NCBI GenBank assembly: GCA_043812915.1
Contig: JBDRLQ010000023.1
Span: 1,582 to 65,581, forward strand
Length of the DNA: 64,000 nt
Origin: Candidatus Micrarchaeota archaeon
GTDB taxonomy: Archaea; Micrarchaeota; Micrarchaeia; Anstonellales; Bilamarchaeaceae
Direction: 5' to 3'
Position numbers and translations under genes: made by a program
The notes under the pieces: generated by a model
Told to the model about the DNA's origin: nothing
The model's database searches: none
Seen by the model: the letters and a program-made list of their open reading frames with translations, nothing else
Shown: piece after piece, positions 28,929-62,856 of the stretch
Numbering within the stretch: the stretch's first letter is position 1
Layout: each line of letters begins with the position of its first letter

Positions 28929-30056
28929 ATGTCTATTAGTGCAAGCTTGGCAAAAGAGTGCGTTCCCGGCCCCAATGGGCTCGGAGCTGCCGCCAAAAGG
29001 CCCGTAGCCCGCTGCAAAGGCGGAGAGGCGCTCCGATGCCGCAAGGGCCGCAAAAATACCAAACCCCCCCTCCTGCCGATTCTTGATTCTAACCATCCCC
29101 CGGCGAATCTTCGGGACCCTGGACTGCTCAAAGAAATTCTGGCAACCGCCGATGCTGATTTACACTCTCTTCCCCTTTCCAAAATCAGGTCGGTGCATAT
29201 GAAGCATCCATTGTTCACTGGCACCCTGCTAACCCTCATGCACAAGGTCTTCGGGATATCTCATACTGCGGAGAGCCTCCTCAGCCATAAGGAAGACGCA
29301 TACATGTTCCTGTGGTATGTCTATGAAGATGAGCGAATCGCATTCGATGGCAGCCTTACCATGGGCGAGATGGAAAACGGTTTCGTTGGCAAAGCCTCCA
29401 CCTCCAGGCGGCCCGACAGGGACTATGAGCTGCTGAGCCTGGCGATGAATGTCCACAGGGCCCTGGAGACCCTAACTTCCAGGGAGCAGATGGTGCTTGA
29501 AGGCAGGTTTGGCGGTGGCGCTACGCTGCAAGAGCTGGCAGATGAATTTCACATAACCCCCGAGAGAGTGCGGCAGATTGAGTCAAAGGCCTTGAGGAAG
29601 ATGAGGATGCGGGAGCGGGCCGCCCTCATGGAGCCATTCACCGAGGACTTCCAGGAAGCCCCGTTCTACCAGGGCCATGCATATTCATATACACCGGTTC
29701 TTATCAGGCGCTACATCCCTGAAATTGTGGCGGTCTCGGAATTTGCACTAAACGGCCCACCCGAAGGAGAAGCGCTCCTTTCGCTTTCGCTGGAGATATC
29801 CGCGCTCTGGCGCAAGCTCCATGAAGAGATGCCTGAAATCAACCTCGGGTTCCTTGAAAACTGCGGCTTTATCGGAATTTCAGAGGAAATGGGAAAAATC
29901 CGGAAACCTGGGCTGAGTGACGTGAAGGGATATCTCCTCCGCTCCATCATGAGGCGCTATCCTGGATACGCAATTGCCCGGCTGGTTGTGAAGCATGAAG
30001 TTGGCCTTAGGGATGAGCATTCCCAGACTGACCTTGCCAGCTGGGAAGAGTATTAA
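28929..30056 (+). CDS. protein containing a sigma-70 region 4 (4.2 HTH)-like domain; N-terminal boundary uncertain
   Basis: LTSREQMVLEGRFGGGATLQELADEFHITPERVRQIESKALRKMR closely matches the bacterial sigma-70 region 4 consensus (..RER.VL.LRFG....TLEE.G..F.VTRERIRQIE.KAL.KLR). No region 2 motif was seen. The first ~90 codons are GC-rich and open on both strands; ATG 29200 (MKHPLF) is an alternative start. Confidence 0.55.
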   Translation: MSISASLAKECVPGPNGLGAAAKRPVARCKGGEALRCRKGRKNTKPPLLPILDSNHPPANLRDPGLLKEILATADADLHSLPLSKIRSVHMKHPLFTGTLLTLMHKVFGISHTAESLLSHKEDAYMFLWYVYEDERIAFDGSLTMGEMENGFVGKASTSRRPDRDYELLSLAMNVHRALETLTSREQMVLEGRFGGGATLQELADEFHITPERVRQIESKALRKMRMRERAALMEPFTEDFQEAPFYQGHAYSYTPVLIRRYIPEIVAVSEFALNGPPEGEALLSLSLEISALWRKLHEEMPEINLGFLENCGFIGISEEMGKIRKPGLSDVKGYLLRSIMRRYPGYAIARLVVKHEVGLRDEHSQTDLASWEEY

Positions 30057-34571: not shown

Positions 34572-35282
34572 TTACTGAGCCCCGAACAGCTTTGCAATCT
34601 CTTTAGCTCTCGGATGGAATATCCTTGTCTTCCAGTGATAGTTTGATGTCCTGATGTCAATATGCGGCATTCCGTCCGTTTCCCCATATCTGATTTCCGT
34701 TATTGTGAAGTTCCTGCGAAGGCCGCTGTTAAGCAGGTCCTTCTCCCCACTCGGGTCCAATCCCATGCCCCAGAAATTTATCGAGCCAAAGCTCTGCCTT
34801 GTTATGAATATGGAGCCAACCAGAATGCGTTTGTTCGTGACGGCCACTTCCCTGACCATGCCCCGCCTCCCGCGCTTTACTGGGGGCCATTTTATATGGC
34901 AGGGCCTCATCCCGATAACTATGTTCTCGCCCTCAGCCAAATCGAAGCTCTCATTTGTCTCCAGCCTGAAAAGATGGCTTTCCTTCCATTTCCGGTAGTC
35001 CCTCATATAGCCATCAATCCTCTCCTTCTCCGGAGTTGTTATGAAAATGGCAAGGTCAAATATAGCGGATAAGAAAATGAAGAGCAGGAATGCCCCCAGC
35101 ATTATCGTAAGCGTCCCTTCTTGGCTGGCAACCCCCAGAACCGGCCGCATGCCATGTGGAAGCAGCAGATAGGCAATTATCAGGAAGAGTGTCACTGCCG
35201 CGAAAAAACGCGGGATGGCATTAAGGCGAAATCCCCCATTCTCATCATCTGCTGCCGGATAATCCATAATTATCTCCTCCAT
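34572..35282 (-). CDS. hypothetical membrane protein (2 TM + soluble C-domain)
   Basis: 236 aa, 10 nt downstream of the 1283-aa repeat protein gene, so probably co-transcribed. Confidence 0.5.
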   Translation of the reverse strand: MEEIIMDYPAADDENGGFRLNAIPRFFAAVTLFLIIAYLLLPHGMRPVLGVASQEGTLTIMLGAFLLFIFLSAIFDLAIFITTPEKERIDGYMRDYRKWKESHLFRLETNESFDLAEGENIVIGMRPCHIKWPPVKRGRRGMVREVAVTNKRILVGSIFITRQSFGSINFWGMGLDPSGEKDLLNSGLRRNFTITEIRYGETDGMPHIDIRTSNYHWKTRIFHPRAKEIAKLFGAQ

Positions 35283-35292
35283 AAGCTAATTA

Positions 35293-38200
35293 TTATGCCT
35301 TCCTGGTCTTCCTTGGGCGTTCTCTCCCGCCCCCTAGCAATCTGTTCCGGTGCGTCTGCGCAGCCCTTCTCAAGACCTTGAAGTACTTGTCTCCAGCATC
35401 CCGAACATCCACTGAAAGCTCCTCAACAAGCCTCTTGGCATTGGCCTCCAATCTCTCCGGTTTTTCATCAGGCTTGACAATCTTTGGGTCGAGCATGAAT
35501 CTTGAAATGACGCTCTGGATGAGCCTTGCATGGGATATGTGCGCCTCTGCCGGCAGACCGTCAAGCATCTCCTCAAGCACCTCGGCTCCCTTGATTGCAG
35601 AGTCTGTCGAATCCTCAATCCTGCTATCGAGCTTCCTGGATATTGCGGCAATCCCCTTTGCCTCTTTTGGCACTTCTGCCTTCAGCCTCTCGAATCTGAA
35701 CATCTCCGGGTCTGAGTCCTCCGGGTCCCTTCCGCTCTTTACAGCAATCAGGTAATAGGCGCTCCTGGTGGCGCCAATCGCCTTATCAAGCACATCCTGC
35801 CCCATCGTAGAGCCAATCCTCTCCTGTGCCGCATCATCAAGCTCAATCCTGCTGTTTGCATCCATCACGATATCGAATCCGAGCTTCCTGAGGCCTTCCT
35901 CGAAATCCCCGCAGAATCTCTTTCCGGTGCTTGCCAGGAGAAGGGAACTTCCTTCCTTTAGCACTCTCCTGGCTTCGGAGAGGATTTCCTTAACAAGGCT
36001 CGGATGCTTCCTTGAATGGAACTGGTAGAGGCTCGAGCACTCGACAAATGAGAGCGAGCCGTCCTTGATTGGGGAATCTGGAAGCATGGCATTTGCCCGC
36101 AGCGCATTTCCGGATTCCCTGAGCATGTCAGGTTCGGCATCTATGTCTATTACTGTCGGCAACTTCTGGTCCCAGTACTCTATCTCGGCTTTTAGATCCT
36201 CCAGCGCTCCATGCACTTCTCCTGGCCCGCTAAGGAAACTGGCACCAATCCCAAGAGCGGGGATATCTCCCTCAATTGAAAGCCGAATTGCGTGGAGCAT
36301 CAGGAGCCTTGTCGAAAGGTATGGGGCAATGTATGCAAATCCTTCGGAATACTTCTTTGCCAGCTCTCCTCCCCAGTTATCGGTGGACATGCTAAGGCGC
36401 ACAAGCTCTCCGGTGCTCAGGCCGGAGCTGGCATTTCCAGGGGAGATGTGGAGCTGTCCCATGCCCTCCCCATTTGGCCCGGCAACCTCAGTTTCGCAAA
36501 GCTGCAGGCAATCCGAGATTCCGCTGAAGCTCGTTCCTTTCTTTGCCCCGCTCAGCCTTTCTGCTACTATCGCATATTTCTTTCCGCTTTTGTTCCAGCC
36601 TTCGCTCAGTTTCCTTCCAGAGAGGGCTCTGGAAATCTTCTTTCCGGCCCGGACCGCGTATTCATCCCTCACTTCATGGGCGAATTCCCTGGCGCTCTCG
36701 AAATCATCGAACCATCCGACAGCAACCATTATCTTAGGCAGCGTATCATCATACCAGGAAGCGCCGTTTGAGCCCGAGAATATGCGCTTTGAGGAATTGA
36801 CCCAGGATGATAAGCCGCTCTTCTTGAGCGCTCCCTGTGCCAGGCGCCATTTCTCCTTCCGCGCTTCCTCCAGCGAAGGGAACCTATCAGTAAATGCCTT
36901 CTTTGCCTCTTCGATTGTGAAGTTCCCCTTACTCTCCCAAATACCCTCCATTTTCTGTTTGTAGTTTTCCTCCTTTACTTTGTTTGAAAAATCCCTGGCT
37001 TCTTCCAGCGTATCAAACCATCCCGCCCCAAGCATGAGGTGCGGAAGCACCGTGGGGTACCATTTGCCGGGTTTTCCATTTTCCTCCTTGAACATAGCAC
37101 CTGTCCTGAAAAACCAGTGCCCGCTCTTTTCCTTGGCCTTCTTGGCAAGCCTGGAGGGTGAGAGCAGGGCCGGATTCTCAACGACCGCCGCCTTCGATGG
37201 GAATTCCTCTGAAAAAGCCTTGTATATGTCATGCTCATCCATCTTGTCCCGGTCGCGCAGGCTGATTCCGAATTCTAGTGCTTCCTCCATTGTCGCAAAC
37301 CAGCCGGACCGGAAAGCAAGGGCGGGAAGGACACTCTCATACCATTTCTTGCTCTCCCCGCCAAATATCCTGACTGCGGGGTGGAACCATTTCCATCTCT
37401 TTGCCTCTTTCCCGCCTCCCTTTGCTTTCTTATGAATCTGGCTCGGGCCTATTGAGGCGGGATTTGCCCGAACCGCCTCCAGAGAAGGGAAACACCTCAT
37501 GAATGCCTCAACTACCTGCTCTTTGCTCATAAGCCCTCTTGCCCGCCGATGTTTTTCATGCCTGCGGACGGATGCGGCGGCCTCTACCTTCTCAACAAAC
37601 GCCCTGGCTTCTTCCTCACTGGAGAACCATCCTGCCTTCAATATCAGCTGGGGCAGCGAATCCCGGTACCAGTCAGCCCTCTCTTCACCCTCGCGTCTAA
37701 ATATTGTGCGGGCCGAATAGTACCAATGGCCCTTGTGCAGCCTCTCAACTATCGCAGGCCTTCCAAGGGCCGCAAGGTCTTTTTCTGCTTCCTTAAGAGA
37801 AGGGAAATCATTCTGGAATCCCTCCACAATCTCATCCATGCCCATTTTCAAAATTTTCTTGGCTGTCTCCTCCGCCCTGCTTTTTATGGAAGCCCTTCGG
37901 ACCTCTTCAGAGAATTCCCTTGCCTCCTCAAAAGAGCCGAACCATCCTGCCTCAAGGGCCAGGTTTGGCAGGACCATTCCATACCATGATCCGATGGATT
38001 TTCCCTTGGATTTCCTGAATATCGAGCCGGCTGAATGGAACCACCTCCTTCCCTTGGCATCTTCCAGCTGCCTTACTGCGGACCTGCTTAGGGCTGAGAT
38101 GTCTCTGCGGGCTTCTTCAAGAGATGGGAAAGCCTGGCTGAATGCCTGGATGATTTCCTCCTTGCCCATCTTCTTGTTGCGTTCCTTGCTGCTAAACTCC

Positions 38201-39144
38201 CGAACTTCTGATGCGAACTCCCTGGCCTCCTCAATTGTAGTGAACCATCCGGCCTCCATTGCCAGGCCTGGCAGCACCTGCCTATACCACTTGCCATTTT
38301 TCCCATCCTGCTGCATGAACGCCGTTTTGGCTGAGTTGAGCCAGGCACCCCCTCCTGCAACCTCCTTGGCTGCCTTCGCTGCGCTAAGGCGGCTAAGATC
38401 CTTCTCTGTTTCCTCCATGCTGGGGAATGCCTGCCTGAAGGCTTCCACAATTTCCTCTTTTGAGAAATTTCTTCGCATATCTTTCAGTGGCTTTGTTGCT
38501 TCCAGTTTTCTGGATTTGCGCACTTCTTCAGCGAATTTGCGGGCTTCATCCATATTATCGAACCAACTTGCCCTCATCACAAGCCCTGGCAGCACTTCAT
38601 CATACCAGTTCCCATTTCTCCCATCCGCCTTGCTAAAGACTATGATTGCGGTATTGTAGAAGTCACGTGTTGGCTTATCATCCGAATTGACGAACGCAGC
38701 GCATGCAAGGGATTCCATTTTCCCCCTCGCATCCTCAAGGGACGGGAATCTCTTGCTGAATTCGCTCATCAGCTCATCATCATCCATTGCCCTCTTTGCC
38801 CTGGATACCCTCTCTATCCCCTTTTGCTTGCCGCAGGCCTTAACTTCCATTGAGAAAGCCTTCGCCTTTTCAATGTCATCGAAATATCCAAGGGAATGGA
38901 GCAGGCCCGGAAGGGCGTTTTCATACCAGTTCCCCCTCTTCTGCCCCGCCTCTGCATACAGGCTGAGAGCCAGATAGTACCAGTTCGGTTCGTTTCCTTT
39001 TGCCGCAGCAAGCGCCCTTTTTGTAGTTAGCTCGAACATGTTCGCTTTGGCGTGCTGTAGGCTAGGGAAAAATCGTGTGAATTCTGCCTTTAGGAGTTCC
39101 AGCCTCTCCTCTCTGCTCCTTGCCATACCAGTAATAATATGCAT
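35293..39144 (-). CDS. 1283-aa protein: eight tandem ~100-aa repeats + C-terminal class I methyltransferase-like domain + basic tail
   Basis: One uninterrupted ORF. Repeat anchor FPS[LMK] falls at aa 26, 133, 240, 339, 447, 552, 648 and 755. Each unit ends ..WY..[VS]LP.L....GWF....EA..F... C-terminal region has IPALGIGASFLSGPG, TVIDIDAEPDML, GSLSFVECSSLYQF and ARRVLKEGSSLLLAS. Confidence 0.7.
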   Translation of the reverse strand: MHIITGMARSREERLELLKAEFTRFFPSLQHAKANMFELTTKRALAAAKGNEPNWYYLALSLYAEAGQKRGNWYENALPGLLHSLGYFDDIEKAKAFSMEVKACGKQKGIERVSRAKRAMDDDELMSEFSKRFPSLEDARGKMESLACAAFVNSDDKPTRDFYNTAIIVFSKADGRNGNWYDEVLPGLVMRASWFDNMDEARKFAEEVRKSRKLEATKPLKDMRRNFSKEEIVEAFRQAFPSMEETEKDLSRLSAAKAAKEVAGGGAWLNSAKTAFMQQDGKNGKWYRQVLPGLAMEAGWFTTIEEAREFASEVREFSSKERNKKMGKEEIIQAFSQAFPSLEEARRDISALSRSAVRQLEDAKGRRWFHSAGSIFRKSKGKSIGSWYGMVLPNLALEAGWFGSFEEAREFSEEVRRASIKSRAEETAKKILKMGMDEIVEGFQNDFPSLKEAEKDLAALGRPAIVERLHKGHWYYSARTIFRREGEERADWYRDSLPQLILKAGWFSSEEEARAFVEKVEAAASVRRHEKHRRARGLMSKEQVVEAFMRCFPSLEAVRANPASIGPSQIHKKAKGGGKEAKRWKWFHPAVRIFGGESKKWYESVLPALAFRSGWFATMEEALEFGISLRDRDKMDEHDIYKAFSEEFPSKAAVVENPALLSPSRLAKKAKEKSGHWFFRTGAMFKEENGKPGKWYPTVLPHLMLGAGWFDTLEEARDFSNKVKEENYKQKMEGIWESKGNFTIEEAKKAFTDRFPSLEEARKEKWRLAQGALKKSGLSSWVNSSKRIFSGSNGASWYDDTLPKIMVAVGWFDDFESAREFAHEVRDEYAVRAGKKISRALSGRKLSEGWNKSGKKYAIVAERLSGAKKGTSFSGISDCLQLCETEVAGPNGEGMGQLHISPGNASSGLSTGELVRLSMSTDNWGGELAKKYSEGFAYIAPYLSTRLLMLHAIRLSIEGDIPALGIGASFLSGPGEVHGALEDLKAEIEYWDQKLPTVIDIDAEPDMLRESGNALRANAMLPDSPIKDGSLSFVECSSLYQFHSRKHPSLVKEILSEARRVLKEGSSLLLASTGKRFCGDFEEGLRKLGFDIVMDANSRIELDDAAQERIGSTMGQDVLDKAIGATRSAYYLIAVKSGRDPEDSDPEMFRFERLKAEVPKEAKGIAAISRKLDSRIEDSTDSAIKGAEVLEEMLDGLPAEAHISHARLIQSVISRFMLDPKIVKPDEKPERLEANAKRLVEELSVDVRDAGDKYFKVLRRAAQTHRNRLLGGGRERPRKTRKA
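36655..39117 (-). repeat. eight diverged tandem coding repeats (~290-325 nt each) inside the 1283-aa ORF
   Basis: Protein-level periodicity is 96-108 aa between FPSL anchors. The nucleotide copies are diverged, so this is not a recent duplication. Confidence 0.7.
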
Positions 39145-39884: not shown

Positions 39885-40799
39885 CTAAGACGCCTTGCCA
39901 ACTGCAGGGTTGATACTAACAAGCTGCGCAAGCAGCGCTTCCCTGCCATACTCGTACTTCAGGCTGATTATGACATTGTCCCCGTCCCTTACCTTGAACG
40001 GCGTCGCGTAGAAATGCTCATCAGTAACTTCGAACGGAACCCCGTTGCAGAGCATCCGGTATTCGCCGGTAGTCTGCCCTCCCGGGTAATGCAGTTCTGT
40101 TTTGAGGAGGAGCGAGCCAGAGGTAATTTCTCCAGGCACATCTGCTCTTGCCCTGAAGCTTATGATGGCATCCACCCCGTCCCGGTCAATGGTCCTCATG
40201 TCGACTACATCGAAGATTTCAGGATCTGATATCGGCACTCCGGATGCGTTGCAGAGGGTAAGGGTGGAGACTGCCTTCTCCGGGATGAAAACCGTATCTT
40301 CCCCAACATGCGCGCGTATGAATCTCATAGCCTTGACCATCGGCTCAGATAGCAGCCCTGTCCCAATCAGCTCTGCCAGAACGAAATCCACTTTTTTTGG
40401 GATATAATAGCTCATCAGCCAGTCGAATATGTTGCTCTCGATGATTTCCAGCCGGTCATTGAACCCGAGCCTCGCAGCGCTACGGACAAGAACCCTGCAG
40501 AGCTCTTCTGATTGCTCTATTGCGACAACCTTTCCCCCTCCCGCATTCAGGAACGCGAAGGAAAGCGGCCCGCAGCCTGCCCCGAGGTCGATTGCAGTTG
40601 CGCCTTCTTCAGTTGCATTCTCAACAATTTCCATCAGGTCAAGCGTCCTGTGCTCGTCTTTGAGGCACTGGCCCCCAAGCGTATTCCTGGTTTCATTGAC
40701 CTTTGCCATCTCTTCGAGCATGACAGCGCGCATCTTTTCCCTGGAGTGGCGCTTTGGCCTGCCGCTTTTGGAAATCCTTCTGGCCGCTAGATTCTTCAT
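39885..40799 (-). CDS. protein arginine N-methyltransferase (PRMT)-like class I methyltransferase
   Basis: CLKDEHRTLDLM (compare PRMT ML.D..RT..Y), motif I AIDLGAGCGPLSF, VVAIEQS, double-E-like loop LAELIGTGLLSEPMV, and a C-terminal beta-rich domain. Confidence 0.6.
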   Translation of the reverse strand: MKNLAARRISKSGRPKRHSREKMRAVMLEEMAKVNETRNTLGGQCLKDEHRTLDLMEIVENATEEGATAIDLGAGCGPLSFAFLNAGGGKVVAIEQSEELCRVLVRSAARLGFNDRLEIIESNIFDWLMSYYIPKKVDFVLAELIGTGLLSEPMVKAMRFIRAHVGEDTVFIPEKAVSTLTLCNASGVPISDPEIFDVVDMRTIDRDGVDAIISFRARADVPGEITSGSLLLKTELHYPGGQTTGEYRMLCNGVPFEVTDEHFYATPFKVRDGDNVIISLKYEYGREALLAQLVSINPAVGKAS

Positions 40800-40847: not shown

Positions 40848-42152
40848 CTACCTTCTTGAGAATCCGACAGAAGTAATCTCCCTTCCAGTTGTTCCGACTG
40901 AAACATCCCATGAAGCACCTTCTGCCTCAACGATGTCCCCGTCCCTGAACCTGTGGAGCACCTGGTGCTGCTCAACCCACACGCCAAGATCAAGCTCATT
41001 TAGGACCATCGGAAGGACATACATCACGTATTCATTGCCTTCCTCATCCCACGTGAATCCGTGCAAGTTGTTGAATGCCTCCATGCGAAATCCATTAACT
41101 GATACTGTGGTCTGGATTGAGTTGGAATCAGGGTCGATGAATACTTCCTCCATCTCTACCGGAGTTGGGGACTCGAATACCCTGTTCCTCTCATGCAGGG
41201 CCTCCCCGCCGCAGAACTCGCCTTCCATGCACCTTGTCAGCTGGATTTCCGCGTCTTCCGGGTCCTCGCTTGTAACATGCACTGCCCAGGTGGCATCATC
41301 CATGAATGGCCTCAGGTCGATATACGGAAGAACCCCTAATTCACTCCTGTAGAAAAGATCGTGCATGCCAAGTTCATCTCCCTGGACCAGGAAAATCCCT
41401 TCTGCGAATTCAATTTCCATGCCTATCATGGTCTCATAAAGGATGAATTCAGGATCATCTTCGTAGACCACCCTCTCCAGGGTAGTGGTTTTTGTATAGG
41501 CAAAATCATTGCTGTCATATATCCTGATTTCAGCACAGGGGACATATCCTTCTGAATCAAGGGCATATCCTGCAGATACCCTGATATTGCCGGTCAGTTC
41601 AATTGAATCAGGCGGGGATAAGATGCTCCCTAGTGATGACGTGAGTGTCTCTCTTGCCCGGAACCCTTCTGGCCCCCTGACATCCACATCGACAAGGTTG
41701 CCTGTCCACAGGCCAACTGCGTCTGGGCCAACTTCAACGTTTTCAACTTCTATTTCGAATCCCATGTATTCAAGTTCAGTAGTTCTACAGCCTTCCCCGC
41801 GATATTCCCTTTCCATCGCGAATGAGATTTCCTCTGTTTCAGTCTCGGTCAACGTAATTGTCCTTCTTACATCCGAATCAGGCTCTGCATCAAACGGAGC
41901 ATCAGCATCATGATTGTCAATATCAGAATCAGGGCCAGAATCAGGCCTTGCATCAGGGGCAGCATCAGGGCCGGATGCGTCTGTTGGAGGGTTCGGCCTC
42001 ACATCGAGGGCCGTCTTTGCGCCGCAGCTTGTTATGAGCGGAGCTACAAGTAGCGCAGTAGTGACAACTGCTCTCTTGAACCAGTTGCTTTTCTTCTGCT
42101 TCTCTCCTTTCTTGCTTCCGACTTCCCCGCTCTTTAGCTGCCTCTCGACCAT
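40848..42152 (-). CDS. secreted/lipoprotein with D/P/A-rich linker
   Basis: TM/lipobox is TTALLVAPLITSCGA, followed by RPNPPTDASGPDAAPDARPDSGPDSDIDNHDADAPFDAEPDSD and then a globular region. No family recognised. Confidence 0.55.
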   Translation of the reverse strand: MVERQLKSGEVGSKKGEKQKKSNWFKRAVVTTALLVAPLITSCGAKTALDVRPNPPTDASGPDAAPDARPDSGPDSDIDNHDADAPFDAEPDSDVRRTITLTETETEEISFAMEREYRGEGCRTTELEYMGFEIEVENVEVGPDAVGLWTGNLVDVDVRGPEGFRARETLTSSLGSILSPPDSIELTGNIRVSAGYALDSEGYVPCAEIRIYDSNDFAYTKTTTLERVVYEDDPEFILYETMIGMEIEFAEGIFLVQGDELGMHDLFYRSELGVLPYIDLRPFMDDATWAVHVTSEDPEDAEIQLTRCMEGEFCGGEALHERNRVFESPTPVEMEEVFIDPDSNSIQTTVSVNGFRMEAFNNLHGFTWDEEGNEYVMYVLPMVLNELDLGVWVEQHQVLHRFRDGDIVEAEGASWDVSVGTTGREITSVGFSRR

Positions 42153-44064: not shown

Positions 44065-46096
44065 GCTAAAAACTGGAAGTAATTCTTCAAGACGAAAGTC
44101 TTGATGAGTGAGAACCATCTTAGCAGAGGTTAATTTGCTGATACAAACCACATAGTGGATGGCTGGGCTGAGGCCCGCACGGCCACGCGGCAAGCGGCGA
44201 AACGCCCTGGGTAGACGCACGCAGTCTTTGATCCAGGGATCTGGCGGTGCACAGTAATGTGCAGTAACCCACCGAAATGAAGCATCTTAGTAGGTGGAGG
44301 AAGAGAAACCAATTGGGATCCGGATAGTAACAGCGAGTGAAATTCGGAGAGATCAAGCTGAATTCCATTGCGGTAACGCAGTGGTAGATGTGGCGGGGAG
44401 TATCCTTTCTGTGAGCAGAAGTCGGCTGGAATGCCGTACCATAGCGAGTAATAGTCTCGTATGCGAAGCAGTGGAGGAGTGATCCAATGAAGAGTAGCGT
44501 ACCCCGGTTAGGGTGCGTGAATATGGGTGCATCAACATCCAAATCTAAACATGAGGCCTTAGACCGATAGCGAAATAGTAGCGCGAGCGAATGCTGAAAA
44601 GCACCGGGGGACCGGTGTGAAAAGAACCTGAAATTATGTGGTGACATTATGGTATGGCACGAAAGGGATTAGGACAATGGAAGCGACTGTTGGTAACGGC
44701 AGGAGCGACATTGTTTAACCGGTGTCATATCTTCCTTCTCGAAGCAAGAACCAAGGAGTTAATGGATGTGGCAAGACGAAAGTCGAAGCGAAAGCAAGCG
44801 CCCGCAGCAGGCTTGTCCTGTCAGGGGCATCGTGGTAACTCGCGATCAGTCACATTCATCAGACCCGAAGCCATAGTGATCTACGCCTGAACAGGGCGAA
44901 GTCAACCTGACGGTTGATGGAGGCCCGCAACTAGTGGTGGTATATTCCCCTTAGGTGATTTGGGTGTAGGGGTGATAGTCCTGTCGAACATGGCGATAGC
45001 GGGTTCCCTTCGAAATGTGTCTTAGCACAGCGTCTCCTGAGAATTATATAGCGGTAGAGCACCGATTAGGCGGAGCGGCCCCGAGAGGGGTCACCATCTT
45101 CTCAAACTCCGAATGCTGTATATTCTAAGACGGAGGCAGTGGGGATTGCGGAGTAAGTCCGTAGTCCCTTACGGGAAAGACCGTACGCAAGGCTAAGGAC
45201 CCTAAATGCTGGTTAAGTGTTAATCATCAAGGAGTCTCTACTCAAAGACAACCGGGAGGTAGGCTCAGAAGCAGCCACCCTCTAAACAACGCGTAATAGC
45301 GGACCGGTCGAGAGTGCAGATTCTTAAAATTCACGGGGCTAAACCAGCTTCCGATACCTTGCCAGAGCCAAAAGCTCATGTGTAGGGGGGCGAACGGGTT
45401 GCGCCGAAGCGCGGTGGTAACATCGTGTGGAGCGGCCTGTTATGAACATCTTGGTGTTAGTAGCAGCATATCCGGATGAGAATTCCGGACACCTCATAGA
45501 GCAAGGATTCCTCAGCCACGTTCTTCAGCTGAGGGTTAGGCGATCCTAAGGGCCATGGTAAAACCTGAAGCCCGAAATCAGGGAATCCGGTTAATATTCC
45601 GGACCTATATGGGTAGGCGCGGTAACGCAAGCCTACTTCTTACGCCTTTGGATATGTGAAGCGGCTTCGGCCGTCTGATAGAAGTAACTCCGTGGAGTCT
45701 CATTGTGAGGAGAAGCGGATGAAATCTTTAGGGGAAACTTCATTGAGTCCGGGGGTCCATGAAAAGTGAAGTAGGAACGATCCCATATAATCGTACCCAG
45801 AACCAGTACAGGTGCTCTAGCTGAAAAGGCTAAGGTGTGACAGGATAACCCAAGCAAGGGAACTCGGCAAGTTAGCCCTGTACCTTTGGTAGAAGGGGTG
45901 CCTTCGCATGCGTAATGTGGAGGTCGCAGTGACAAGTGGAGTGCGACTGTTTACCAAAAACACAGGTCATCGCAGAGCGGAAACGCTGAGTATGATGGCT
46001 GACGTCTGCTCACTGCCAGTACCTGAACACCGGTTTCAACCGGGAGAAGGGCTGGTAAAGAGCGGGGGTAACTCTGACCCTCTTAAGGTAGCGTAA

Positions 46097-46224
46097 ACAA
46101 GGCCAAGAATCATGTTTACATGAGGATTGCCTTGAGTTTGCGGTAATTGTTGCCAAAAGCAAGTCGTTAAAGTAGTGAGGAAATCCTCGATCTATATCCT
46201 TAACCGGATATGGCCTTGACGTAA
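46097..46224 (+). other. archaeal bulge-helix-bulge intron (128 nt, no ORF) in 23S domain IV
   Basis: Removing it restores the conserved GGTAGCGTAATACCTCGCCGCTTAATTGGCGGCTTGCATGAATG. Outer helix is AGGTA/TACCT, central 4-bp helix GCGT/ACGT, bulges AAA and AA(T), inner helix CAAGGCC/GGCCTTG. The boundary is ambiguous by up to 5 nt because CGTAA is repeated. Confidence 0.8.
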
Positions 46225-46750
46225 TACCTCGCCGCTTAATTGGCGGCTTGCATGAATGACGTAACGTCGCTCCAACTGTCCCTGCTTGGGACCTGGTGAA
46301 CTCACTGCCCGGTGAAGATGCCGGGGACTTCCAGAGGGAAACGAAGACTCCATGGAGCTTTACTATAGCCTGATGTTGTGATATTGAGTTGGCTACACAG
46401 TGTAAGTGGGAGCCGTTAAGCTGTGCCTTCCGGGGTACAGATAGGCAAAAGTGTAACACCACTTAGTTAGTTCGATATTGCTTACCCGCAAGGGGACAGC
46501 GTCAGGTGGATAGTTTGGCTGGGGCGGTACGCCCTCGAAAAGGAAACAAGGGCGCCCAATGTTCTGCTCATGCCGGTCAGAAATCGGCAGTAGAGGGTTA
46601 AAGACAAATGCAGGGCTGACTGTATTTCTCATAGTATGGAATGCAGAGACGAAAGTCGGGCTTAACGAACCTTGAAATCCCTTTGATGAGGATTCAAGCT
46701 GTCAGACAAGCTACCCTGGAGGTAACAGGCTCGTCGCGGGCGAGAGTACA

Positions 46751-46800
46751 CTGCGATGTAGTCAAAACGTTTCTTTTGAACTAGGACTACTTCGCGTGCG
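46751..46800 (+). other. 50-nt insertion in the 23S domain V H89 apical region: mini-intron or expansion hairpin
   Basis: GAGAGTACA[50 nt]TATCGAC interrupts the conserved GAGAGT.CATATCGAC string. The insert forms a ~10-bp stem (GCGA-GTAGTC / GACTAC-TCGC with one U-U mismatch). No canonical BHB could be drawn. Confidence 0.5.
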
Positions 46801-47237
46801 TATCGACCCCGCGGTTTGGTACATCGCTGTCGGCTTGGGATATCCTGGCCGTGTAGGAGCGGCCAAGGGTTGGGTTGTTCATCCATCAAAATCCCACATG
46901 AGCTGGGTTCAGTACGTCGCGAGACAGTACGGTAGTATCTCCTGGAAGTGTTGTCTCTTGAAAGGAAGGATCCTTGAGTACGAGAGGAACGGGGATCCGG
47001 CGCCTCTAGTCTACCGGTTGTGAATTGCATTGCCGGGCAGCCACGCGCCAACCGATAAGACCTGAAAGCATCTAAGGTCGAAGCGGCTCTTAAAACGAGG
47101 AGACATACCGCAGATAACAGATCTGTTTGATAGGACCATGGTGTAAGACGCTAGGTTCGCCGAGCGTTTCAGCCAGTGGTTACTAACGGTTTACTTCAAA
47201 GAATTCAACCTTTGCGGATGGTCCTTCTGGTTTTTGT

Positions 47238-58674: not shown

Positions 58675-61600
58675 ATGCACCCGAAAGAACGCAAAAGTTC
58701 CAGGAGCTATTTTGGAATAAAGGAAGAATACATCACTCTTGGGCTTATTGCACCGCTGATATTCGCCTGCATGGTGACCGATCCAATCCTTGTCTCTGTC
58801 GACAACTTCAATAACGGCCAGTCTTCGGCATTGCTGGTTTATGGCGGGTTGGAGAATCAGACATTCGATTTCAACATCTCGAAATACGTTGCCAGGGGCA
58901 ACTGGTCGAAGGACGGGGTATTCGCTGATTTCACGGTGCAGATGTGCCCCACTGCTGGAGCGCCATCGAACCTTAGGTTATATTTCCCGGATACAAACAA
59001 TTCTGTTCTCCTTCACGCGGGTGCGCTAGGAGGGTGCCAGAACGTCACGGTGGATACGCTGGGATTCGACCCTTATTTCAACACCACCACCGCGACCATA
59101 ATTAACCTGCCGATGATTATCGAGGCCGCAATCGCGGGTGGGCAGCTCAACGGGGTCAACTTCATGATGCTCAGGAATCCCAAGATATACGATTCCTCTG
59201 AGGCCGTGACATACACCCTCATGTGGCCCTACTTCCAGTCTGACCAGGTGAGGTACAAGTGCAATGATTCGGATGTTGAACGCCTAGTAACATCTCCAGC
59301 TAAGACATGGAATTTTGCCTTTAAACTCCCGATGGATCTTCCTGCACTTCCTCCGTTGCCTTCGTTACCGGTTCCAATACCTCTACACGGCAACCAGCTA
59401 AGTAGCTCTGCAAATTTCTATGACATGCCATGCCCGGCCTATGGCATCCCTGGTAAGCATACTGGCAAGGTGACTGGTGTTCATATGTTTATTGACGGCA
59501 TCGATTGGGTGGACTACTTCAACACCACCGATTATTTCAACACCACCCTGAACACCACCTACTGGGACGTGCGGACTGCCAATGCCTCACTCCCGGCGCA
59601 GAATTACAGCGTGCTGCGGATGGAATCCCCACAGGTTGCGACTGGTATGAACGCATTCTATTCAATCCCGGTCACTCCGAATGCGACAGAAAGATTCAAC
59701 ATATCGCTCAAACTCGCGAGCATGGACGTCTCCGGGGACATAGGGGCATCGGCGGCAGGGATAATCGCTTTCTTCAATGGCACTTCTGAACCGACGACCC
59801 AGGCACTATTGGTAACCAACCTCAGCCAGCTTCTGGTCTTCAATGAAACCGCGATAATGCTTATGTGCAATCTTTCTGGGCCGGAGGCCAGCGGGGCTCT
59901 TGGGCCATCACCGCATATTTTTGAAATCAGCAGTGAAGGCAAAAACATCAGCTATTATCTGGATGGTGCCCTGTTTGGCAGTTGCCTTGGTGAGAACGGA
60001 ATCAATGATACTGTCTACTACATGTTCTCCCCTGATGCCATTACTGATGGCTGGATTGGCAACATGAGCGTGGATTCTGTAAATGTCACTTATGAGAACT
60101 GGAATGGAACTGACTGGGTGCCTTACGTTTATTTCCAGGAGACATTCGATGCCCTGAACACAACCGCATGGACAATACTGAACGACACTGCTGCCGGAGG
60201 CTCAAACTACTCGATAAAAAGCTGGCTCTACGATCCGAGCGGTTTCGCTTACTATGAGGACAACTGGCCGGCAGGGGAGCTTGACCTTTACTCATACGCG
60301 GATGATGATGGCAGCGGCATCGTGATGTATTATAATGAGCCCTTGGTCTACTTGGATGCCAGCACCAGGCTCTTTTTAGTGAATATTACCGCAAGCGCGA
60401 ATGATGTTCAGGGAGACGCCTCCGGGATATTCCTGATGAGGAGCAAGATGGATCCTGATACGATGGCCAACTTCATTCCACAGGTGGCAGCAGCCATTGT
60501 CTACAATGGCACTGACTACAGCATGTTCTGCGACCTTTCGGCAGGCGCGAACGCAACTGGCACTTTCACCGTGCAGAATGATTCTTTCGGAATGTTCTTT
60601 GACAACACAACGCTCACCATGGTTGCTGGAACGACAATCCTGGACAACTGCACATTGCCGGATTCAGACCTCTATTTCGCCTTTACATCCGATCCGCTCA
60701 TAGACGCGAACAACGGGAACTCAACGCTCGATTCGGTAACAATCGCCGCAGTGAACCTGCACAATGTGACCGACTGGAGATGGTTCGAGCCTGAATCGGA
60801 GGTATGGGAACAGGTCTCGGCTTTTGGTGGGGCATTCAACTTCAGCATAACATCCGATGTGATAGTCAGGGACTGCACAGACCCATGGAACTGTGGATAT
60901 GATTTCCAGCTCCAGTCGGATACGGCCGGGAGCGTCAATATCTCAATAGTGAATATCAGCTACGAGAGCCTCATCGGATACAATGGCGGTGCACCAAATG
61001 TCACAATAACCAACACACCGATATTCTCATGGATGGCTGACAATTCAACAATAAGCGATTCGGAAGTGAGGTATCAGAGCGCCTTCTTTGATTCCAGAGT
61101 GGAAAGCAGCGACATAATAATGAGCGACCTTGAGTGCACCTACGCCTCCGGCTCGCAGCTGTACGGCGCGTACAGGCTCTCAGGGTTCAGCAATAACAGC
61201 CTGGGCAACCCGCCCCCTCTGGGCGTGCCCTCAATCGAGATTTCTCCAGAGCCCTGCGGGGAAATAGTCAATAGCGAGATAAACGGCGGGCTGATGCTGG
61301 GTGGCTCCGCATATAATTCTGTAATCCGCGGAGGCGGAGGACTGTTCATGGACTTCGAGGACGCTGTTTTCGAGAACTATTCCCTGGCTACCGGCAAGGC
61401 GACCATGAACCTGACGAAGTATGGTGCCAACGCCCCTGCATGGCTCACTGCGATGGGGCAGCCTAATGACAGCATTGATGTCACGGCGCTCCTGGGTATT
61501 TTCGGGGGCGGCTCTGTGCCGCTTGGCTGCTTCGAGGGAGCGACTTTTGCGATAGAAGGCTTCCCGGAGGCTGTGCTCTCGGATTCCACCGAGCCGTTCG

Positions 61601-62856
61601 CCTGCTGGATGCAGCTCTATAGCATTCATCTTATCTTCAACAACATGAGCATCACCAACAGCTCCATCGGAGGCCCGACGATATCGCTGGAGAATGCCAG
61701 CTTCACCATCGGGGACCAGGATGAGCTCTTTAACCTGAGGCTGATGCAGGAGAACGCCTATGTCGTGTTCTGGGGGGTGAACACCTCTGCCGGAGCCATA
61801 AACTTCAATTCAACGGCGCAGTATGTCGGCTCGGACCTGTTCGCAATCAACGCCTCGTATTACAACTGGACCAACGGCTCGGTGAGCACGATAGCCTTCA
61901 CAAACCTACCATCCAGGCCAACGACCGTCTACTATTATCCGTTGTTCACTAACGACACGAGCACCGTGGTGGCCGATGGCATACCCTGTGATGCGAGCAA
62001 CTACTGCTTCAACATAACCTGGGTGGCCTCAACCGGCACTCTGCTCTTCAATGTCACCAACTTCTCTTCATACGCCATAGCCCGGGCCGCGCCGCCTCCA
62101 GGAGGGGACGAAGACGAGCGATTCTCGCTCTTCGTTGATGCCGGCAGGGTTGGGGAAGAGACGCTGTTCAGGGCGGAGAGGAGCTCCGGAAATCCGCTAG
62201 GGCTTGTTGAAATCAGGGTGTTTGGCCCTGGGAGCTCTGCCCTGCTCGCTGAAGTCCTCATGACTGATGCCCTTGGCGAGGCGATCTTCGTTCCTGCCGG
62301 GGAAGGCATGTATTATTATCGGGCCACAAGGCCCGGCTATAGGGCCGAGGAAGGCTCGTTCTACGTCGCTGAGCTTGAAGGGTCGGGCGAAGAGCCTGAA
62401 TCTCCGGCGACTGTCCCCGGAGAGGATGAATGCGCTGATGATTCCGCGTGCGCCAATGACCAGGTCTGCACCGGCGGCTCATGCATAGGCATCGAGCCTG
62501 GCGTCTGTGGACATTTCGTTGGCCATGCGTGGGTCTCATACCAATGCTGCGATGATTCCATGTGTCCGGAGAACTACGTGTGCACGGACAATGCGTGCAT
62601 TGAAACGCAGGCTGAAGTGCCCGCGGCTCCGGAAACCGAGCCTCCAGAGCAGCCGGCAACGGTTCCTTCAAGCCCTGTTATTGATGAAATCGAGCATTTC
62701 GACGAGCAGCATGTGCCTGAATGCTGCTTCCTGGGAATCTGCGGCGTATATGGAGGGCTCTGCTGGTACTGGTGGCCGGTACTGCTTGGGCTGCTCGCCA
62801 TTCTCCTGGCTGGAGTGGTTCTTTACAACCAGGCGATGAAAAGGGGCAAAAAGTGA
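58675..62856 (+). CDS. 1393-aa membrane-anchored surface (S-layer-like) glycoprotein candidate
   Basis: N-terminal signal/anchor is ITLGLIAPLIFACMV. There are 55 N-x-S/T sequons by manual count. C-terminal parts: a CarboxypepD_reg-like beta domain, two Cys-rich DDS.C...CT...CI units, a P/E linker, TM segment CWYWWPVLLGLLAILLAGVVLY and a KRGKK tail. Confidence 0.7.
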   Translation: MHPKERKSSRSYFGIKEEYITLGLIAPLIFACMVTDPILVSVDNFNNGQSSALLVYGGLENQTFDFNISKYVARGNWSKDGVFADFTVQMCPTAGAPSNLRLYFPDTNNSVLLHAGALGGCQNVTVDTLGFDPYFNTTTATIINLPMIIEAAIAGGQLNGVNFMMLRNPKIYDSSEAVTYTLMWPYFQSDQVRYKCNDSDVERLVTSPAKTWNFAFKLPMDLPALPPLPSLPVPIPLHGNQLSSSANFYDMPCPAYGIPGKHTGKVTGVHMFIDGIDWVDYFNTTDYFNTTLNTTYWDVRTANASLPAQNYSVLRMESPQVATGMNAFYSIPVTPNATERFNISLKLASMDVSGDIGASAAGIIAFFNGTSEPTTQALLVTNLSQLLVFNETAIMLMCNLSGPEASGALGPSPHIFEISSEGKNISYYLDGALFGSCLGENGINDTVYYMFSPDAITDGWIGNMSVDSVNVTYENWNGTDWVPYVYFQETFDALNTTAWTILNDTAAGGSNYSIKSWLYDPSGFAYYEDNWPAGELDLYSYADDDGSGIVMYYNEPLVYLDASTRLFLVNITASANDVQGDASGIFLMRSKMDPDTMANFIPQVAAAIVYNGTDYSMFCDLSAGANATGTFTVQNDSFGMFFDNTTLTMVAGTTILDNCTLPDSDLYFAFTSDPLIDANNGNSTLDSVTIAAVNLHNVTDWRWFEPESEVWEQVSAFGGAFNFSITSDVIVRDCTDPWNCGYDFQLQSDTAGSVNISIVNISYESLIGYNGGAPNVTITNTPIFSWMADNSTISDSEVRYQSAFFDSRVESSDIIMSDLECTYASGSQLYGAYRLSGFSNNSLGNPPPLGVPSIEISPEPCGEIVNSEINGGLMLGGSAYNSVIRGGGGLFMDFEDAVFENYSLATGKATMNLTKYGANAPAWLTAMGQPNDSIDVTALLGIFGGGSVPLGCFEGATFAIEGFPEAVLSDSTEPFACWMQLYSIHLIFNNMSITNSSIGGPTISLENASFTIGDQDELFNLRLMQENAYVVFWGVNTSAGAINFNSTAQYVGSDLFAINASYYNWTNGSVSTIAFTNLPSRPTTVYYYPLFTNDTSTVVADGIPCDASNYCFNITWVASTGTLLFNVTNFSSYAIARAAPPPGGDEDERFSLFVDAGRVGEETLFRAERSSGNPLGLVEIRVFGPGSSALLAEVLMTDALGEAIFVPAGEGMYYYRATRPGYRAEEGSFYVAELEGSGEEPESPATVPGEDECADDSACANDQVCTGGSCIGIEPGVCGHFVGHAWVSYQCCDDSMCPENYVCTDNACIETQAEVPAAPETEPPEQPATVPSSPVIDEIEHFDEQHVPECCFLGICGVYGGLCWYWWPVLLGLLAILLAGVVLYNQAMKRGKK

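Follow-up and report, generated by a model that had tools for sequence, protein, structure and literature searches.

A tandem array of predicted all-helical domains joined to a class-I methyltransferase in a Micrarchaeota protein

RESULTS

A repeat protein gene in a Micrarchaeota contig

We analyzed a 64,000-nucleotide (nt) stretch of a genome assembly of a Candidatus Micrarchaeota archaeon (GCA_043812915.1; contig JBDRLQ010000023.1, positions 1,582 to 65,581 of the forward strand), which is referred to here as the window. The gene under study lies on the minus strand (35293..39144). Its open reading frame (ORF) is uninterrupted, encodes 1283 amino acids (aa) counted from the first ATG, and ends with a stop codon at 35293–35295. 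The encoded protein carries eight tandem units of ~100 aa in its N-terminal two-thirds and a predicted class-I S-adenosylmethionine (SAM)-dependent methyltransferase in its C-terminal third. An initial annotation of the window had described a 1283-aa repeat protein; the ORF length and the repeats were right, but the methyltransferase had been overlooked. The true start is probably Met7 (ATG at 39124–39126), which would give 1277 aa, because a database copy of the protein (P0001) and the N termini of orthologues (M..REER…) point to this codon. The largest Kyte-Doolittle value over a 19-residue window was 1.09. Given the lack of any hydrophobic segment, we take the protein to be cytoplasmic.

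Anatomy of the repeat array

The tripeptide FPS occurs at residues 26, 133, 240, 339, 447, 552, 648, and 755 of the ORF, exactly the eight positions initially listed, and nowhere else. Each FPS is followed after ~47–49 residues (46–50 across the eight units) by WY and after ~60 residues (59–62) by GWF, which is replaced by GYF in unit 1 and by SWF in unit 2. Unit borders were set 13 residues ahead of each FPS anchor. The resulting array (36601–39108, all on the minus strand) comprises unit 1 (38788..39108; aa 13–119), which is the most diverged, unit 2 (38467..38787; aa 120–226), unit 3 (38170..38466; aa 227–325), unit 4 (37846..38169; aa 326–433), unit 5 (37531..37845; aa 434–538), unit 6 (37243..37530; aa 539–634), unit 7 (36922..37242; aa 635–741), and unit 8 (36601..36921; aa 742–848). 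The initial annotation had placed the eight units within 36655–39117 (aa 10–830); the units stand, and their borders are redrawn here.

The eight units (96–108 aa each) align with few gaps and share 25–52% pairwise identity. Their consensus, M..EEI..AF...FPSLEEAR.....L...A...W..SA..IF....GK.G.WY..VLP.L...AGWFD..EEAREF..EVR, agrees with the one proposed earlier. With unit 3 as the query, phmmer detected the other seven units at 35–84 bits, while the best score over 50 shuffles of the remaining sequence was 1.7 bits, which confirms the eightfold tandem repeat. No further copies of the module were found in the other proteins encoded in the window.

At the DNA level, the codon-aligned identity between units was 43–55%, and Tandem Repeats Finder detected no long-period (~300-nt) array. 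The DNA copies are thus well diverged, as had been claimed. Since the identity between the units does not exceed 52%, we judge them to be old, and this divergence also bears out the earlier view of an array that is both old and maintained in this protein.

Each unit does contain the two F-x-S/T-x-EEA motifs that had been reported, and both cap the N termini of helices in the AlphaFold2 model described below. In an hhalign comparison, the two motifs aligned over 9 columns only, amounting to a shared helix-cap motif, and an internal duplication inside the unit was ruled out on this basis. Most units open with a methionine (consensus M-[ST]-x-E-E-[IV]; window 36601..39108 on the minus strand), as do units of P0002–P0013. 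This residue may belong to the core or may be a trace of the fusion of tandemly duplicated small genes.

Predicted fold of the unit

Unit 3 was modeled by AlphaFold2 on an alignment of 47 units, both paralogous and orthologous. The model had a mean predicted local distance difference test (pLDDT) score of 89.5 and a predicted template modeling (TM) score of 0.76, and all five models reached a pLDDT of at least 84.8. It was wholly helical (helices 3–13, 17–22, 24–27, 29–35, 39–49, 60–71, and 78–99) and had no β-strand. The aromatic positions fell within this helical framework: W42 lies within helix 39–49, W60-Y61 start helix 60–71, and G-W-F forms the loop preceding the last long helix (78–99). 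Hydrophobicity averaged over 67 family units gave an independent view of the segments presumed to be strands, with peaks at 84–108° per residue, as is typical of helices; the WY segment also had an appreciable 160–180° component. On the basis of the model, the N-terminal two-thirds of the protein is predicted to fold as eight independent all-α domains of ~88 residues, each with seven helices.

The conserved positions of the unit (F10, F14, L27, W42, W60, Y61, L65, P66, W74, F75, A81, and F84) probably form its hydrophobic core, as judged from the residue types and the helical periodicity.

Searches for known relatives of the unit

Neither the full protein nor single units produced a significant match to the repeats in Pfam, NCBIfam, PHROGs, or PADLOC. 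When each of the 47 units was scanned against Pfam at E ≤ 10, no family recurred (the commonest, "Latarcin," matched 6 of 47), and neither TPR nor Sel1 was among the matches. The 47-unit profile had no significant match among PDB sequences (best E = 0.4), and Foldseek searches of the PDB with the unit model returned no fold match and no solenoid, although small helical domains are hard targets for Foldseek. The module therefore remains unrecognized, as had been noted at the outset, and neither the model nor the searches pointed with confidence to Sel1/TPR repeats or to a characterized family. We regard it as a domain family not described before, with an all-α structure that is predicted with confidence but lacks a match, and as a candidate new fold.

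The initial annotation had suggested that the second half of the unit follows an AP2- or NUMOD-like layout (W-strand, GxWY-strand, GWF-strand, and helix). This suggestion was not supported, as the model has seven helices and no strand and the profiles failed to match. The AP2 profile matched none of the 47 units at E ≤ 10, nor did it match the full protein. NUMOD1 matched one of the 47 units (E = 0.13), NUMOD3 and NUMOD4 matched none, and the full protein, linkers included, had no NUMOD match at E ≤ 1. The SPOR profile matched two of the 47 units, not significantly (E ≥ 0.047). Taken together with the strand-free model and the helical periodicity, these scans led us to reject AP2, NUMOD, and SPOR-type βα modules. 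AP2/ERF and NUMOD domains share with the module only the helix-starting motif "aromatic-x-S/T-x-E-E-A-x-x-F/Y," and AP2 is a ~60-residue domain with a three-stranded β-sheet and a helix, whereas the module is predicted to have no strand at all.

The array also resembles the PUF, PPR, TALE, mTERF, and TPR/Sel1/HEAT families, which likewise consist of tandem α-helical units that vary in copy number, spread by duplication, and target effector domains. However, the units of these families span 30–45 residues with two or three helices and pack into a continuous solenoid, whereas the units described here span ~100 residues, have seven helices in a self-contained globular model, and are separated by basic linkers. 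No Pfam hits to PUF, PPR, TALE, mTERF, or TPR/Sel1/HEAT were obtained among the 47 units.

Charge of the array and its linkers

The linkers between the units are 5–18 residues long and mostly strongly basic. In the window protein, they carry +24 over 102 residues (~+23 per 100 residues), while the domain cores sum to −6. Single cores range from −5 to +5. Of the seven interunit linkers, five have a charge of +3 to +5 each, and the final connector has +9. The arrays were basic in all 14 members examined (isoelectric point [pI], 9.3–10.0; net charge, +13 to +39), but a pI of 9.3, the value for the window array, is unremarkable among window ORFs (median pI, 8.1; 30% above 9). Because the local proteome itself leans basic, we down-weight the overall pI of the array and treat only the charge density of the linkers as distinctive.

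The C-terminal methyltransferase

The last 450 residues are conserved across nearly all relatives (alignment A3). The array is followed by a basic connector with a conserved "YAIV…SF.GI..LL" element (36367..36600, minus strand; aa 849–926), for which the model is mostly of low confidence or disordered. Next comes the class-I Rossmann-fold SAM-dependent methyltransferase domain (35737..36366, minus strand; aa 927–1136), and a family-conserved helical region followed by a basic tail (35329..35667, minus strand; aa 1160–1272) completes the protein. The domain contains motif I (GASFLSGPG; 36220–36246), motif II (VIDIDAEPDML; 36121–36153), in which D1000 is invariant and D1002 is ≥90% conserved, and a β4 motif (LSFVECSSLYQF; 36019–36054), all on the minus strand.

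AlphaFold2 modeled the core of this domain at a pLDDT above 90 with a Rossmann-type alternation of β-strands and α-helices. In a Foldseek search of the PDB, 264 matches were obtained at E ≤ 0.001 with a probability of 1.00, and all of the matches listed were class-I methyltransferases. The A3 profile matched one PDB entry well above the others, namely, 2zfu, the methyltransferase domain of human nucleomethylin (NML)/RRP8 (E = 1.4e-7; runner-up, 0.011), over ~82 residues of the β4–β5 region at ~16% identity. The same entry had the highest target-normalized TM-score (0.62), yet it ranked ninth by Foldseek E value among many generic methyltransferases. In Pfam, Methyltransf_11 matched 15 of 16 members and Methyltransf_8 (PF05148, the Rrp8 family) matched 11 of 16 (best E = 1.7e-4), with marginal scores in both cases.

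Across the 16 members, motif I, GASF(L/M)SGPG, retains invariant S140, S143, and G144 and a P145 conserved in ≥90%, with the first glycine of GxGxG replaced. Motif II, ID(I/V)D, has an invariant D171 and a D173 conserved in ≥90%. By its modeled fold and its motifs I and II, the C-terminal third is predicted to be a class-I SAM-dependent methyltransferase, and SAM binding by motif I (xSGPG) and the acidic motif II is plausible. These comparisons go as far as the label of a class-I SAM methyltransferase that lies closest to Rrp8/NML and do not place the protein within the Rrp8 family.

The likeness to Rrp8/nucleomethylin (2zfu) extends to the layout of the protein, in which a C-terminal class-I SAM methyltransferase likewise stands behind a long noncatalytic N-terminal region. 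That region is a low-complexity extension in Rrp8 but an ordered array of three to eight helical domains here. Rrp8 is a eukaryotic enzyme that forms N1-methyladenosine (m1A) in 25S/28S ribosomal RNA (rRNA), whereas the present protein is archaeal, is restricted to Micrarchaeota, and is known from sequence. Motif I also differs, reading xSGPG in the window protein.

Distribution and evolution of the family

The family is extremely rare. The full protein had only nine relatives in an index of 5.8 billion sequences, and a search of 1.84 billion cluster representatives with the unit profile gave 32 proteins at E ≤ 0.001, ~25 of which were genuine. The matches to three giant repetitive proteins (P0016, P0023, and P0026) and two TPR proteins (P0025 and P0033) were rejected as spurious because they were limited to a motif of ~30 residues. 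In the giant proteins (3,100–4,700 aa), the motif "Y..LLP.L.LP.GW(F/L)TA.E.P.EL.NG" resembles the WY..VLP.L…GWF region of the module, a resemblance that is either convergent or spurious.

The relatives fall into three architectures. The first combines three to eight units with the methyltransferase, joined by basic linkers, and includes a diverged subfamily (P0018, P0032, and P0034) that has lost the FPS and GWF motifs and kept both the repeats and the methyltransferase. The second, seen in P0009, consists of five units and an unrelated C terminus, and the third comprises smaller proteins that have one to three units and lack the methyltransferase. In four module-only proteins (P0021, P0024, P0027, and P0028), lysine-rich segments that come after the module contain a recurring motif, "K..W.DP.(F/Y)R.K." Although this motif recalls nuclease-associated DNA-binding linkers, Pfam NUMOD3 was not detected in these four proteins. 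No methyltransferase-only relatives were found in the 5.8-billion-protein index, where a search with the A3 profile gave one hit and a search with the C-terminal domain as a single sequence gave two fragment hits, both being limited by the word-index candidate step.

The named sources of relatives were Candidatus Micrarchaeota (P0007 and P0031). A trimmed alignment of the methyltransferase core detected the domain in only two Micrarchaeota metagenome-assembled genomes (MAGs) among 185,579 species genomes. The pattern G·WY···LP·[LI]····GWF, searched in DNA, was found in one Micrarchaeota MAG, plus one chance hit (a lone Chitinophagales match that is out of frame and interrupted by stop codons), and was absent from 2.9 million viral contigs. 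An origin in a defense system or a phage was also rejected, as there was no PADLOC hit to the repeats, the single PHROG hit lacked a passing stretch, and the viral contigs were devoid of the motif. These distributions suggest a modular repeat-methyltransferase protein that is specific to Micrarchaeota, within the DPANN archaea.

A nearest-neighbor analysis of 67 units revealed positional orthology between P0010 and P0013, while the units within P0006, P0008, and P0012 were 70–78% similar to each other. Taken together, these two patterns indicate that the arrays grow and shrink by lineage-specific duplication and loss.

Neighboring genes and other features of the window

A 236-aa predicted membrane protein without a Pfam hit is encoded 10 nt downstream of the repeat gene (34572..35282, minus strand). 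Elsewhere in the family, a bPH_2 (PF03703) gene lies directly upstream of the P0009 repeat gene and another lies ~3 kb from P0024 (L007, 5414–5926; L008, 2103–2615; P0009/P0024 loci). These neighbors are inconsistent across loci, and the membrane protein and bPH_2 genes may reflect a loose association or a coincidence.

Two genes upstream of the repeat gene and on the same strand is a second class-I methyltransferase (304 aa; 39885..40799, minus strand), which had weak hits to Methyltransf_31, PRMT5, and PrmA and a PADLOC "mad2" (mads_2) hit at E = 3.6e-11. The window also encodes a very acidic predicted protein (434 aa; pI 4.25; 40848..42152, minus strand), in which an N-terminal hydrophobic segment and a cysteine ("LITSCG") suggest a lipoprotein or a surface protein.

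A complete archaeal 23S rRNA gene is located about 5 kb from the repeat gene (44129..47205, plus strand) and marks the window as part of an archaeal chromosome. Rfam found neither a 16S nor a 5S gene in the 64 kb of the window, and because the 23S gene thus stands alone there, the rRNA genes are apparently unlinked. Two other ORFs drew our attention. One (375 aa; 28929..30056, plus strand) has a strong match to bacterial Sigma-70 region 4 (PF04545; E = 4e-17), which is unexpected in an archaeon and could be a helix-turn-helix regulator of bacterial origin or a product of horizontal transfer. The other encodes a very acidic predicted protein (1393 aa; pI 4.05; 58675..62856, plus strand).

DISCUSSION

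With its basic linkers and its attachment to an Rrp8-like methyltransferase, the array would most plausibly serve to bind nucleic acid or another polymer. Our tentative reading, to which we assign a probability of roughly 0.4, is of the array as a multivalent tether by which the methyltransferase is retained on a large polyanionic substrate. The helical units would act jointly and with low specificity: basic linkers and module surfaces would make weak contacts, numerous enough to keep the enzyme in place, and the tethered enzyme would install base methylation on the substrate. Since the methyltransferase is nearest to Rrp8, this substrate would most likely be rRNA or a pre-ribosomal particle, with chromosomal DNA or chromatin as a less likely candidate. 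Rrp8 is the methyltransferase for m1A645 of yeast 25S rRNA, and an m1A has been reported in archaeal 23S rRNA, in Haloarcula (PMC3553958).

Several observations weigh against this reading. On the side of the enzyme, the profile match to 2zfu is confined to a short region, generic small-molecule methyltransferases equal 2zfu on fold score, and the window protein scores 14.7–15.5 bits against Methyltransf_8, below the gathering score of 27 bits. Furthermore, motif III has its acidic residue in the diverged subfamily, as in 2zfu, but the main subfamily does not conserve it. On the side of the array, nearly every conserved position of the unit is hydrophobic and no conserved surface patch was identified, so that no conserved ligand-binding surface is evident; the alignment behind the unit model is shallow, and the overall pI of the array does not stand out locally. 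As for the genomic context, the neighborhoods of P0007, P0004, P0017, P0009, and P0024 differ, with no conserved operon partner, and the proximity to the 23S rRNA gene is peculiar to the window, as it was not repeated at six related loci.

Some of the same observations would suit a protein–protein scaffold, in which the methyltransferase acts on a protein (at lysine, arginine, or the N terminus) or is recruited to a protein complex, and in which the array binds partners such as ribosomal proteins, chromatin proteins, or multiple copies of a single protein. Protein interactions are a common role of all-α repeat domains, the domain cores are roughly neutral, and the conservation of core positions together with surfaces that differ between units fits diversified partners. 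Class-I methyltransferases of the generic kind also include protein methyltransferases, and CypM and Trm112-dependent enzymes were among the listed Foldseek matches. However, the closest relative by sequence methylates rRNA, basic linkers are a consistent feature, and no conserved neighbor gene could encode a partner. We consider a scaffold unlikely, though it is the main rival of the tether.

It is improbable that the array is a passive spacer, rod, or ruler without a ligand, or that the methyltransferase is a dead SAM sensor in a structural or regulatory protein. The copy number is free to vary from 3 to 8 among orthologues, conservation is limited to core positions, and the last helix of the unit continues into the linker, which is compatible with a semirigid rod; in addition, the motif III acidic residue has been lost in the main subfamily. 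On the other side, the module also occurs in one to three copies without the methyltransferase, which argues for an autonomous function, and ~2.5 kb of diverged coding sequence has been kept in a reduced genome, which argues for selection beyond length. Motifs I and II and many other methyltransferase residues are invariant across deep divergence, which argues for retained cofactor binding.

We are similarly doubtful that the module, as a new fold, acts as a helical repeat that reads nucleic acid, each unit recognizing a single RNA or DNA site and arrays of three to eight units programming a Micrarchaeota-specific Rrp8-like methyltransferase for its rRNA or genomic target. If true, this would define a new class of modular RNA- or DNA-targeting domain confined to DPANN archaea. 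Finally, AP2/integrase- or NUMOD-like units (a three-stranded β-sheet and a helix) forming a multivalent, sequence-specific DNA binder are scarcely credible, because the superficial motif likeness (W…, G.WY…, GWF.T.EEA..F), the aromatic and β-branched residues in these segments, and the few insignificant NUMOD1 and SPOR matches are set against a confident strand-free model, a helical hydrophobic periodicity, and the lack of AP2 matches, of consistent NUMOD matches, and of PDB sequence or fold matches.

Returning to the tether, what appears to be new at the level of sequence is the family of helical, putatively targeting arrays and its combination with a methyltransferase, while the enzyme fused to it belongs to the already known class of class-I SAM methyltransferases. 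The protein family as it stands is well defined, rare, and uncharacterized. With its confident model and no detectable Pfam or PDB relative, the module is a candidate for a new Pfam family, and the species-variable copy number of the putative tether would offer a tractable system for how valency tunes the residence of an enzyme on its substrate. If the enzyme turns out to form m1A in rRNA, Rrp8 would gain a counterpart in archaea. Micrarchaeota are symbiotic DPANN archaea in which a large share of genes have no assigned function. If the tether reading holds, their reduced genomes would encode a lineage-specific means of targeting an RNA or DNA methyltransferase.

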